A DNA stretch of 64,000 bases from Escherichia coli (GTDB taxonomy: Bacteria > Pseudomonadota > Gammaproteobacteria > Enterobacterales > Enterobacteriaceae): the NCBI RefSeq assembly GCF_003334765.1, contig NZ_QOWT01000014.1; one strand, given 5' to 3'. Below the pieces are notes generated by a model that was given only the letters and a program-made list of their open reading frames with translations, was not told the origin of the DNA and searched no databases. Position numbers and translations under genes: made by a program. Each line of letters begins with the position of its first letter. The first letter of the stretch is position 1. Positions 91-62,747 of the stretch are shown here, piece after piece.

Positions 91-948
91 TCAGCCTAAA
101 ACTGCCAGTTTTTCGAGCGTTTCGAAGCCGTAACGCTGTAAAACGGGCAATAATTGTTCAGCTCCTGGCGTCATTGCCATACAAAAGGCAATATTCGCAT
201 CGGCAGATTTTGCATCCGGGGCTTCATGTTCTAACAACCAGGCCGTTCGGCGAGCAATCGCTGCGCCAGAATCCACCAGCCGGGTTCCCTCTGGCAGCAC
301 TTGTAACAGTTCTTCTTGTAGTAGAGGGAAATGGGTGCAACCCAATACAACGGTATCTGGCGGCTCTTTCATTCTTAACCACGGGCGTAGGATACGTTTT
401 AGTGCATCCAGAGAAACATCTTCGCCATGTAGCTTCGCTTCAGCCAACTCAACCATCTCTGCCGAGCCCAGCATTTCTATCTGGCATTCATTAGCGAAAC
501 GCGCGATCAGCTCATGAGTATAAGAACGTTTAATTGTTCCGCGGGTTGCCAGTAATCCGACAATGCCATTTGCCGTCAGACGTGCAGCAGGTTTAATCGC
601 CGGCACGACACCAACAACCGGGAAGTCGAACTTTTCGCGTAATGCAGGAAGTGAAACGGTACTGGCAGTGTTGCAAGCGACCACAGCCAGCGCAAGGGGA
701 TAACGTTCTTGCACCGCGGTGACAATTGCCACCACTCGCTCAACAATAAACGCTTCGCTTTTTTCGCCATACGGGAAAGCGACGTTATCGAAAGCATAAA
801 TGTAATGGAGATCCGGTAAGAGATGCCGGATCTCGTCATAGACCGACAACCCACCGACGCCGGAGTCAAACACCAGCACGGTGGGACGTGGTTCAGAAGG
901 TGTAGCTGCCAGACAAGGTGTATTCCCGTCCTGCAGTTTGGTAGCCAT
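91..948 (-). CDS. murI: glutamate racemase
   Basis: ORF 91..960 translation recognised as MurI ([40 protein letters not shown]...); start set to the MATKL Met, giving 285 aa. Confidence 0.93.
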
Positions 949-2737
949 AGACTGTCTCATAATCTTTGTCGAACAGGTTGGCTATTTTACCACGAACTGT
1001 CAGGTGAGAGGTGACCGGATACGCAACCGCAAGATCCCACAAGCTCACACCGCCCATTTTAACGGTTTGATAAGGATAAGATGAGTAATCCTTATCATAG
1101 CGAGTGCCTAAATACTGATAAGTAATACCCCAGTCGAAGTCATACAACTGCCAGTCGAGCTGGTATTTCACCTGCTGTTTAGCACGGCGTAACAACGGCG
1201 TGTCGGTAATCGCATTGCGCGCATCGACATAATCATAACTCACAGTATGCGTCAGTGGTCCGGTATCAAAATTGGCGGTCGCCTCGACGCCCTTAATCCG
1301 CGCTTTCCCTTCGTTGTAATATTTCAGGGTGTGATCATCATAATCGATCAAGTCACTGACATCGTTACGATATCCGGAAATACGCCAGTTCACCCCAGCG
1401 GTTAAGCCTTCAAACGCGCCTTCCCACTGTTTGCTTTTCTCCGGGTCCAGATTCGGATTTCCGTAGAAGCCATACAGTTGCCCCAGATTTGGTGCCTTAT
1501 AAGATGTCCCGTAGGAAGCAATGAAGCGATAACCTTCGATGAATTCCCAACCGGCGCTGGTTTGCCAGGTTCCATGACGACCAAACTGTGAGTTATCGTC
1601 ACTGCGTGCTGCGCCTTCAAAGGTAAAATCGCCGACTTGTTGCAGCCCGGTCAGATAGATGCCGGTATTACGTTGATCATATCCATCCTCAACATAACCT
1701 GTACCCGGCGTCGTAGTCTGTTTCTGCCAGTCGACACCCGCACCAATACTACCGTGACCAACGATGACATTGTTTGCCCACTGGACGGTGTATTGCTTCA
1801 TCTCATCGAGCGTCGCCGACGAATCATAACGACCATAATGGGGATCGTAGTTGTAATCTTTGCTATGGCTATAGCTGGTAATGAGTTGTGATTTAATCAG
1901 TTCGCCGTTATAGCGCAGCCCGGCGTCCCAACTTTGGCTATAGAGTTTACGGGTATCGAGCAACGGTGAACCGGGAGAATAATACGCGTCATAATTGGTA
2001 CGGTTATCATAGCCATAGCCGCGCACAAAGCCGCTCCAGGCATCAGTAAAGTTATGCTCCAGCGCGCCATAAAGCGTTTTACTTAAAAAACCATCGTTAT
2101 CTGTCTGCGCTTGCGTTCCGGTATTACCATAGGCAACAACATCATAACCATGAGTATGGGCATAATCGCCCAACAGCGTTACCCGTGTCTTATCCCCCAG
2201 TTGTTGCTGCGTAGAGACATCATAGTTCTGATAACTATTGCTTCCCCACCCTGCTGAAATTTCCGTTCCGGGTTCATCGCGCGTCGTGATGATATTCACC
2301 ACCCCGCCTATTGCATCGGAACCATAAACAGCGGAGCGCGGCCCACGGATATATTCAACACGCTGGACAAGCGCAATAGGGAACTGGCTAAGGTCGGCAG
2401 AACCACTCACCCCCGCCAGATTCAGGCGTACGCCATCAATTAACACCAACACATGACTGGCATTTGTACCGCGAATAAAAATAGATGAGAGCTGACCTGA
2501 ACCGCCGTTTTGGGTGATATCGACGCCCGGAAGACGGCGCAGCACATCATTGACCGAGGTCGACTGCCAGCGGTCGATATCCTGACGGGTCACAACGGTG
2601 GTTGGTGCAAGCACAGTGCTGCGCGGCTGTTCAAAACGGTTAGCAGTAACGACGAGAGTATCCGGGCTGGTATCCTGTGCCCAAGCGGAAAATGCCGTGA
2701 CGGAACACGCCGTCAGCAGCGAAGCTTTTTTAATCAT
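893..2737 (-). CDS. btuB: TonB-dependent vitamin B12 outer membrane transporter
   Basis: ORF translation recognised as BtuB; signal peptide [20 protein letters not shown], TonB box DTLVVTA, C-terminal Phe; start at MIKK gives 614 aa. The 3' end overlaps the murI start. Confidence 0.95.
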
Positions 2738-2977
2738 TGTAAAGCATCCACAATAGAAGAAGGATGCCGCAGGTTTCATCAATATTACGCGATGATGAGA
2801 ACCAGATGCGACGTTGGCCGGCAGGTCTTCGGGCTTGGAGGGGTATCTAAGATACTAAGAGATGATGACTTCCCACCGAATGGCAGTGTCCGCATAACGC
2901 AATCATCGCACCTTTCCTTACCGCTGCGCGTCAGCTCCAGATTCGCACTGGATTCCCTATTAACTCACAGGACCGGC
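2738..2977 (-). promoter_or_regulatory. cobalamin (adenosylcobalamin) riboswitch in the btuB 5' leader
   Basis: Minus-strand sequence from 2977 reads GCCGGTCCTGTGAGTTAATAGGGAATCCAGTGCGAATCTGGAGCTGACGCGCAGCGGTAAGGAAAGGTGCG... through to the btuB ATG, matching the ~240 nt btuB leader as I recall it. Confidence 0.85.
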
Positions 2978-3105
2978 AAGTGGATGCTACAGGTTGTAAC
3001 AAGTTACTGTCCAGACGTAGCTCACAAATAGGAATTCATCAAGATCTGGACATCTGATGAGCAATCCCTACAATCGCCGCGTACTTTAATTTTTCAGGAT
3101 ACATC

Positions 3106-4206
3106 ATGACCCCCGAACACCTTCCAACAGAACAGTATGAAGCGCAGTTAGCCGAAAAAGTGGTACGTTTGCAAAGTATGATGGCACCGTTTTCTGACCT
3201 GGTTCCGGAAGTGTTTCGCTCGCCGGTCAGTCATTACCGGATGCGCGCGGAGTTCCGCATCTGGCACGATGGCGATGACCTGTATCACATCATTTTCGAT
3301 CAACAAACCAAAAGCCGCATCCGCGTGGATAGCTTCCCCGCCGCCAGTGAACTTATCAACCAGTTGATGACGGCGATGATTGCGGGTGTGCGTAATAATC
3401 CCGTTCTGCGCCACAAGTTGTTCCAGATTGATTACCTCACTACGCTGAGTAATCAGGCGGTGGTTTCCCTGCTATACCATAAGAAGCTGGATGATGAGTG
3501 GCGTCAGGAAGCGGAGGCCCTGCGCGATGCACTGCGCGCGCAGAATCTGAATGTGCATCTGATTGGTCGGGCAACGAAAACCAAAATCGAGCTGGATCAG
3601 GATTACATCGATGAACGTCTGCCGGTCGCAGGGAAAGAGATGATCTACCGTCAGGTAGAAAACAGCTTTACCCAGCCGAACGCGGCGATGAATATTCAGA
3701 TGCTGGAATGGGCGCTGGACGTAACCAAAGGCTCAAAAGGCGATTTACTGGAGCTGTACTGCGGCAACGGTAACTTTTCATTAGCGCTGGCGCGTAATTT
3801 TGATCGGGTATTAGCCACCGAAATCGCTAAGCCGTCGGTTGCTGCTGCGCAATACAACATCGCAGCTAACCATATTGATAACGTACAAATTATTCGTATG
3901 GCGGCAGAAGAATTTACTCAGGCGATGAATGGTGTGCGCGAGTTTAACCGCCTGCAAGGGATCGACTTAAAGAGTTATCAGTGCGAAACCATTTTTGTCG
4001 ACCCACCGCGCAGCGGTCTGGACAGTGAAACCGAGAAAATGGTGCAGGCGTATCCGCGTATTTTGTACATCTCCTGTAACCCGGAAACGTTATGCAAGAA
4101 TCTGGAAACATTAAGCCAGACGCACAAGGTCGAACGTCTGGCTCTGTTTGATCAGTTCCCCTACACGCACCATATGGAGTGCGGCGTATTACTGACCGCG
4201 AAGTAA
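3106..4206 (+). CDS. trmA: tRNA (uracil54-C5)-methyltransferase
   Basis: 366 aa ORF recognised as TrmA; C-terminal SAM-dependent RNA methyltransferase motifs ([14 protein letters not shown]). Confidence 0.95.
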
Positions 4207-7981: not shown

Positions 7982-8098
7982 GAAACGGAGCGGCACCTCT
8001 TTTAACCCTTGAAGTCACTGCCCGTTTCGAGAGTTTCTCAACTCGAATAACTAAAGCCAACGTGAACTTTTGCGGATCTCCAGGATCCGCTTTTTTTT
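7982..8098 (+). ncRNA. oxyS: OxyS small regulatory RNA with intrinsic terminator
   Basis: Sequence GAAACGGAGCGGCACCTCTTTTAACCCTTGAAGTCACTGCCCGTTTCGAGAGTTTCTCAACTCGAATAACTAAAGCCAACGTGAACTTTTGCGGATCTCCAGGATCCGC followed by T8 matches OxyS as I recall it; divergent from oxyR. Confidence 0.9.
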
Positions 8099-57583: not shown

Positions 57584-57683
57584 TGCCGGATGCGGCGCGA
57601 ACGCCTTATCCGGCCTACAAAAGTTTGCAAATTCAATAAATTGCAGAATTCATGTAGGCCTGATAAGCGAAGCGCATCAGGCA
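57584..57683. repeat. RIP-type BIME (third copy in window, opposite orientation)
   Basis: TGCCGGATGCGGCGCGAACGCCTTATCCGGCCTACAA - AAGTTTGCAAATTCAATAAATTGCAGAATTCATG - TAGGCCTGATAAGCGAAGCGCATCAGGCA. Confidence 0.85.
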
Positions 57684-62662: not shown

Positions 62663-62747
62663 GCAGGCAGGATAAGGCGTTTACGCCGCATCCGGCATTT
62701 GAGCAGGATGCCTGATGCGACGCTGATAGCGTCTTATCAGGCCTACA
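62663..62747. repeat. REP pair (BIME) downstream of cpxA
   Basis: GCAGGCAGGATAAGGCGTTTACGCCGCATCCGGCA and inverted GCCTGATGCGACGCTGATAGCGTCTTATCAGGCCTACA. Confidence 0.85.

Follow-up and report, generated by a model that had tools for sequence, protein, structure and literature searches.

The btuB leader in an Escherichia coli contig is the classical AdoCbl riboswitch

The 240-nt leader that precedes btuB in the analysed window, the whole 64,000-nt stretch of Escherichia coli DNA, is the classical E. coli btuB AdoCbl (coenzyme B12) riboswitch, an element that is already known and that shows no departure from published biology. The first-pass annotation, which was made from the sequence, had placed such a leader at 2738-2977; these coordinates proved exact, and the strand, which had not been given, is the minus strand. 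Its description as the classical AdoCbl-responsive btuB leader is borne out by a match to the Rfam family RF00174, by identity with the K-12 leader, by the BtuB-encoding gene downstream, by the PGAP annotation of the same stretch and by structure-preserving variation among orthologues. The element almost certainly acts in the btuB mRNA leader as a translational OFF switch with subsequent Rho termination. The btuB riboswitch was among the first riboswitches described and is still a model for translational riboswitches. Its confirmation here validates the first-stage annotation and brings no new biology, and its practical value is that of a positive control for the scan.

Locus and identity of the leader

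The region 2300..3300 of the window sits between two divergent genes, btuB on the minus strand and trmA on the plus strand from 3106. The product of the former is BtuB, with a match to the NCBIfam equivalog NF007926 of 1112 bits against a cutoff of 836, and TrmA matches TIGR02143 at 621 bits. The btuB ATG at 2737 (MIKKASLL...) is the same as the RefSeq start. The main features of the locus, in window coordinates, are as follows.

893..2737, minus strand: btuB coding sequence, 614 aa, the regulated gene (NCBIfam and RefSeq annotation).
2738..2977, minus strand: btuB 5' leader, 240 nt, with the putative +1 at G2977 and the last base before the ATG at 2738.
3013..2984, minus strand: promoter-like site for btuB, with -35 TGGACA at 3013..3008, an 18-nt spacer and -10 TAGCAT at 2989..2984.
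2510..3031, plus strand: 173-aa open reading frame (ORF) with a TTG start, antisense to btuB codons 1-76, to the leader with its riboswitch and to the promoter.

The promoter-like site for btuB, judged by a consensus scan only, has 9 of 12 consensus matches, and G2977 lies 7 nt downstream of it. From this arrangement we infer that the btuB transcript starts at about G2977; the footprint numbering in PMC3050690 implies a +1 one base downstream, at 2976. The trmA-btuB intergenic region is 368 bp long and carries two back-to-back promoter-like sites, both with TGGACA as the first hexamer. The second site, on the plus strand (TGGACA-16-TACAAT, 3047-3074, 10 of 12 matches), would serve trmA. At its other end, btuB overlaps the start of the annotated murI (glutamate racemase) by 56 nt (window 893-948, minus strand), and the murI start in the mechanical ORF list lies further upstream, at 960.

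The leader is base-for-base identical to positions 4163399..4163638 of E. coli K-12 MG1655, and the 801-nt stretch around it (window 2376..3176, reverse strand) is 100% identical to K-12 MG1655 4163200..4164000 (NC_000913.3). A 551-nt query that includes the leader (window 2600..3150) was matched in every complete E. coli genome searched (5426/5426); at least 80% of its length was covered in 5418 of the 5426, and 4586 genomes matched at 99% identity or above. A PGAP feature named cobalamin riboswitch lies directly upstream of btuB at the equivalent of window 2802..2992. PGAP-annotated E. coli genomes have such a feature; in the K-12 MG1655 RefSeq record, none is listed between trmA and btuB.

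Coverage of window 2600..3150 fell below 80% in 8 of the 5426 complete genomes. In E. coli STEC1587 (NZ_CP129259.1), an IS3-family element in the trmA-btuB intergenic region splits the aptamer at about leader +64. It occupies 1774-2936 of the retrieved stretch, with the break at window ~2914, and PGAP annotates no riboswitch in this genome. BtuB is a colicin and phage receptor, and the STEC1587 insertion may therefore be a natural btuB expression variant.

Aptamer, expression platform and conservation of the helices

The whole window was scanned against Rfam 15 with cmscan. This covariance-model scan, which the first-pass annotation had named as the check on its proposal, was strongly positive for the cobalamin family: RF00174 (Cobalamin) matches 2992..2803 on the minus strand with 87.0 bits (gathering score 31.5) and an E value of 4.2e-20, and model positions 1-189 of 189 are aligned. 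The 15 nt of the match beyond 2977 correspond to the unpaired or weakly paired 5' flank of the model, and most of the pairs that cmscan draws there are non-standard, so that these 15 nt are not considered part of the RNA. A degenerate pattern of the aptamer core occurs once in the window and in none of 100 shuffles. The parts of the leader, all on the minus strand, are listed below; leader position p equals 2978 minus the window coordinate.

~2977..2817, minus strand: cobalamin aptamer, leader ~1-161 (RF00174 and PGAP feature).
2977..2972 and 2822..2817, minus strand: helix P1, leader 1-6 and 156-161, which closes the aptamer (Rfam alignment).
2931..2927, minus strand: loop L5, ACGCG, leader 47-51, the loop of P5 in the Rfam alignment and the aptamer-side partner of the kissing loop.
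2835..2820, minus strand: B12-box core AGCCCGAAGACCUGCC, leader 143-158, which matches the conserved 3' portion of the RF00174 consensus.
2816..2738, minus strand: expression platform, the remainder of the leader after the aptamer.
2812..2807, minus strand: candidate anti-anti-SD (SD, Shine-Dalgarno) GUCGCA, leader 166-171, complementary to UGCGGC at leader 207-212 (2771..2766).
2803..2772, minus strand: P13 hairpin, leader 175-206, predicted by RNAfold and independently by RNAalifold.
Leader 180-185 and 197-202, minus strand: upper stem of P13.
2791..2787, minus strand: P13 loop CGCGU, leader 187-191, which pairs with L5 ACGCG (47-51).
2767..2744, minus strand: P14, the SD-sequestering hairpin, formed by GCAUCC at leader 211-216 (2767..2762) and GGAUGC at leader 229-234 (2749..2744).
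2749..2747, minus strand: Shine-Dalgarno GGA, leader 229-231, inside the 3' strand of P14.
2737..2735, minus strand: btuB AUG, leader 241-243.

The core motifs AGGGAA, GUG..AA, GCCACUG-like and AGCCnGAAGACCUGCC are all present in the Rfam alignment, with GACACUG in the E. coli leader where the motif is GCCACUG. Their positions are nearly all invariant in 13 orthologous leaders, in which AGCCCGAAGACCUGCC is also mostly invariant. The end of the aptamer is 80 nt from the btuB ATG, which follows it in cis and on the same strand. P14 is predicted by both RNAfold and RNAalifold, with -9.3 kcal/mol for the isolated hairpin, and the L5/L13 kissing loop has been described for btuB RNA (PMC5359240). 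By minimum free energy, the leader is no more stable than shuffles (z 0.22), and the evidence for structure is accordingly the covariance model and the comparative data, not folding energy.

Besides the cobalamin riboswitch, which the first-pass annotation had taken as the main structured RNA element of the window, several other Rfam matches lie above the gathering score, so that the riboswitch is not the sole structured RNA element here. These are the OxyS sRNA (7982-8091, plus strand, 139.5 bits) and, in the order given, naRNA4, the ClpQY promoter element, the L31 ribosomal-protein leader and two copies of ES036 (62666-62743, plus; 43911-43968, plus; 39247-39299, minus; 57620-57661, plus; 38226-38267, minus).

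Orthologues were retrieved by a DNA-pattern scan with one genome per species, which yielded a sample of at least 120 matching stretches. The pattern fixes part of the aptamer core, and the sample is thus biased, the invariance of those columns being partly by construction. In 31 of the 120 stretches listed, the match is followed on the same strand by a homologue of TonB-dependent receptors; 20 of those 31, and E. coli as well, represent btuB orthologues from Gammaproteobacteria, their start codons falling 150-250 nt beyond the pattern. Fifteen loci from Enterobacterales, Vibrio, Aliivibrio and Aeromonas were scanned with Rfam, and in all 15 a full-length RF00174 match, scoring 80-110 bits, closely precedes the btuB homologue.

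Thirteen Enterobacterales leaders were aligned with MAFFT, as related sequences rather than guided by structure. Several blocks do not vary in this alignment: the aptamer core, the ACGUCGCA that directly follows P1, and the UCGCG of the P13 loop, as well as UGCGGCAUCC and GGAUGC. RNAalifold, given no prior information, recovered P4, P5, the B12-core hairpin, P13 and P14. It also paired GGG (21-23) with CCC (145-147), which was replaced by the Rfam pairing of A20-G22 with C153-U155; both sets are invariant, and the data cannot discriminate between them.

Base pairs were then counted on a specified structure that is partly derived from E. coli, consisting of the Rfam core helices, P13 and P14, with L5/L13 as a pseudoknot. 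The helices of the peripheral extension (leader ~54-149), which include several non-standard pairs in the Rfam alignment of E. coli, were omitted from the count. Standard pairs fill 94.6% of the cells across the 13 leaders, compared with 32-48% when the partners are slid by 1-3 columns, and 11 pairs have changes on both sides compared with 4-6 when slid; none of 500 shuffles reached 11. Compensatory changes are found in five of the six P13 pairs, as well as in P1, P4 and the B12-core hairpins, with two compensated pairs each in P4 and the B12 core. All six pairs of P14 are invariant in the 13 species, and the L5/L13 kissing loop is paired in 98.5% of cells with four of its five pairs never varying. 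With so little variation, P14 and the kissing loop draw their support from conservation and not from covariation.

Regulation of btuB and rival readings

The dependence of btuB expression on AdoCbl, on the pseudoknot and P14, and on Rho is known from published experiments on the same sequence, in which AdoCbl binding was shown to prevent the initiation of translation. Direct AdoCbl binding with a ligand-dependent structural change has been published for the identical sequence (PMC11162775, PMC5359240, PMC12870672). AdoCbl represses a BtuB81-LacZ translational fusion by 97% and lowers btuB mRNA levels; destabilising the pseudoknot (EP1) abolishes AdoCbl regulation, and destabilising P14 abolishes (EP3) or reduces (EP2) AdoCbl repression (PMC11162775). 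Coding sequence is also needed: 18 nt are enough for control at the level of translation, and a transcriptional fusion is controlled only with 210 nt. Bicyclomycin or rho R66S relieves the control of the transcriptional fusion, and together these results place a Rho-dependent terminator in CDS +81..+210 (PMC11162775). The corresponding features of the coding sequence in the window are the following.

2657..2528, minus strand: Rho-termination region, btuB CDS +81..+210 (PMC11162775).
2672..2644, minus strand: pairing region of the sRNAs OmrA and OmrB, btuB CDS +66..+79 and +83..+94 (coordinates from PMC11162775).

The Rho-termination region contains 33.1% C and 25.4% G versus 23.7% C and 26.6% G in the whole btuB CDS, a composition mildly consistent with a rut site. 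An earlier ChIP-qPCR experiment, from which AdoCbl was absent, scored Rho termination at btuB as 0.9, that is, none (PMC5499598). Published work also adds regulators beyond the riboswitch, namely the sRNAs OmrA and OmrB and the protein GadX.

In the mechanism that these data and the sequence point to, the leader is transcribed from the minus strand with a probable start near 2977, and its first ~161 nt fold into a class-I cobalamin aptamer with a peripheral extension and a B12 box, in which P1 closes a four-way junction. On AdoCbl binding, L5 (ACGCG) kisses the P13 loop (CGCGU), and this docking favours P14, whose GCAUCC/GGAUGC stem buries the GGA Shine-Dalgarno sequence 10 nt upstream of the AUG. 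With the SD sequestered, 30S subunits are unable to initiate and BtuB synthesis falls; the untranslated mRNA then undergoes Rho-dependent termination within CDS +81..+210, so that the mRNA level is also lowered. In the ligand-free state, an upstream anti-anti-SD would hold the anti-SD strand and leave the SD free.

For the ON state, PMC11162775 refers to an anti-SD/anti-anti-SD helix, there given without coordinates. The equilibrium ensemble without ligand keeps the SD paired, with a probability of being unpaired of at most 0.22 for the platform alone and at most 0.01 for the full leader, so that simple equilibrium folding does not explain the ON state. Of the duplexes that the anti-SD region can form with leader sequence upstream of it, GUCGCA/UGCGGC is the strongest, at -9.4 kcal/mol; this helix would have P13 inside it and extend into the base of P14, and RNAalifold gives a 4-bp version of it that coexists with P14. 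Both strands are invariant in the 13 Enterobacterales leaders and hence display no covariation. GUCGCA (166-171) is thus a candidate for the ON-state anti-anti-SD, as judged from complementarity and conservation.

Cobalamin riboswitches in other phyla, for example in many Firmicutes, commonly use intrinsic terminators, and the btuB leader might likewise be read as a transcription attenuator in which AdoCbl forms an intrinsic terminator and translational control is secondary, a reading in keeping with the lowering of btuB mRNA by AdoCbl (PMC11162775). However, a search for a stem followed by a U-tract found no intrinsic-terminator-like site in 2600..3200 on either strand, and P14 is followed by CUUUACAAUG and not by a U run, which fits translational rather than attenuator control. 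A six-codon btuB transcriptional fusion is also unregulated whereas the translational fusion is regulated (PMC5499598), and the mRNA effect requires both CDS +81..+210 and Rho (PMC11162775). Existing reports also point away from AdoCbl-dependent termination within the leader when Rho is absent, and attenuation in the leader is very unlikely. The idea that the element is a degenerate or inactive relic, with btuB in this strain regulated only by GadX and OmrA/OmrB, draws on the GadX footprints within the leader DNA (PMC3050690), on the riboswitch-independent repression of btuB by OmrA/OmrB, which together with Hfq pair at btuB CDS +66..+94 (PMC11162775), and on the IS3 insertion that interrupts the aptamer of at least one E. 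coli genome. Set against these are a leader identical to the functional K-12 leader, an RF00174 score far above the threshold over the full model and the integrity of all functional helices, and the probability that the element is a relic is therefore close to nil.

The frames that overlap the leader bear on a further reading, in which the plus-strand ORF 2510..3031 encodes a genuine protein and what looks like a leader is its coding sequence. An uninterrupted, TTG-initiated frame of 173 codons does exist, as the first-pass annotation had described while calling it spurious, but it has no NCBIfam match at E values up to 0.01 and is absent from both the PGAP and the K-12 RefSeq annotation. Moreover, it is antisense to the first 76 btuB codons, the riboswitch and the btuB promoter; conservation in the region tracks the RNA helices of the opposite strand; and the stop-free antisense stretch runs for 176 codons in E. 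coli and is cut to 81-92 in two species of Citrobacter, where BtuB is 85% identical. A gene here is thus highly improbable, and the ORF is flagged as a six-frame artefact.

On the minus strand, the btuB frame is open upstream to an in-frame TTG at 2782, which lies 15 codons before the ATG and within the 3' strand of P13 (629 aa in the mechanical ORF list versus 614 aa). This TTG is unsupported as the btuB start, the RefSeq start and the signal-peptide-like N-terminus both favouring the ATG at 2737. A 36-aa ORF wholly inside the leader and a 23-aa ORF that starts upstream of +1 were considered as leader peptides, and no support was found for either. The earlier statement that the leader holds no ORF is therefore only approximately true: frames do overlap it, and none of them has support. 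The preferred reading remains a translational AdoCbl riboswitch followed by Rho termination.

Comparison with known systems

The AdoCbl riboswitches of T. tengcongensis and S. thermophilum, which have been crystallised, belong to the same aptamer fold family as the btuB element: they too have a four-way junction and join L5 to L13 in a kissing loop (PMC5359240). In Vibrio, Aliivibrio and Aeromonas, genes for BtuB homologues of 33-43% identity are preceded by leaders whose RF00174 aptamers are full-length (80-110 bits) and share L5 ACGCG with E. coli. In contrast to the E. coli leader, these leaders lack the GCAUCC/GGAUGC P14, and a CGCG lies a few nucleotides upstream of an AGGA Shine-Dalgarno sequence. 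This CGCG could be the L13 partner of the kissing loop, and the arrangement, as judged by inspecting the sequences, suggests a platform in which the SD would be occluded directly by the kissing loop, a simpler design than the relay hairpin of E. coli.

The btuB leaders of other Enterobacterales (Citrobacter, Pseudescherichia, Superficieibacter, Enterobacter, Pantoea, Budvicia and Zophobihabitans) match RF00174 at 87-98 bits in the same position relative to btuB. They have the same platform, made up of P13, the CGCG of the kissing loop and the GCAUCC-GGAUGC P14, and the same invariant ACGUCGCA and UGCGGCAUCC. They differ from E. coli in the peripheral extension, which is variable in both length and sequence from leader ~64 to ~140, and in the sequence of the P13 stem, which differs through compensatory changes. 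A speculative and rather doubtful reading is that the Enterobacterales platform is a derived relay design, in which a separate, invariant P14 has been interposed, perhaps with GUCGCA as the ligand-free anti-anti-SD that docking of the kissing loop would draw off. If this were true, the comparative data would pin down the exact ON-state helix, and the evolutionary gain of a relay hairpin would add a new, if modest, point on a thoroughly studied riboswitch, one that may already be implicit in published secondary-structure figures.

The closest known system is the K-12 btuB AdoCbl riboswitch itself (RF00174, class Cbl-I), to which the whole leader and its flanks are identical here. The two share the gene context, with trmA divergent from btuB-murI, and helices P1-P14, the L5/L13 kissing loop and the SD hairpin are the same as those in PMC11162775 and PMC5359240. 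No difference between the K-12 riboswitch and the element of the window is detectable, and the two are the same element.
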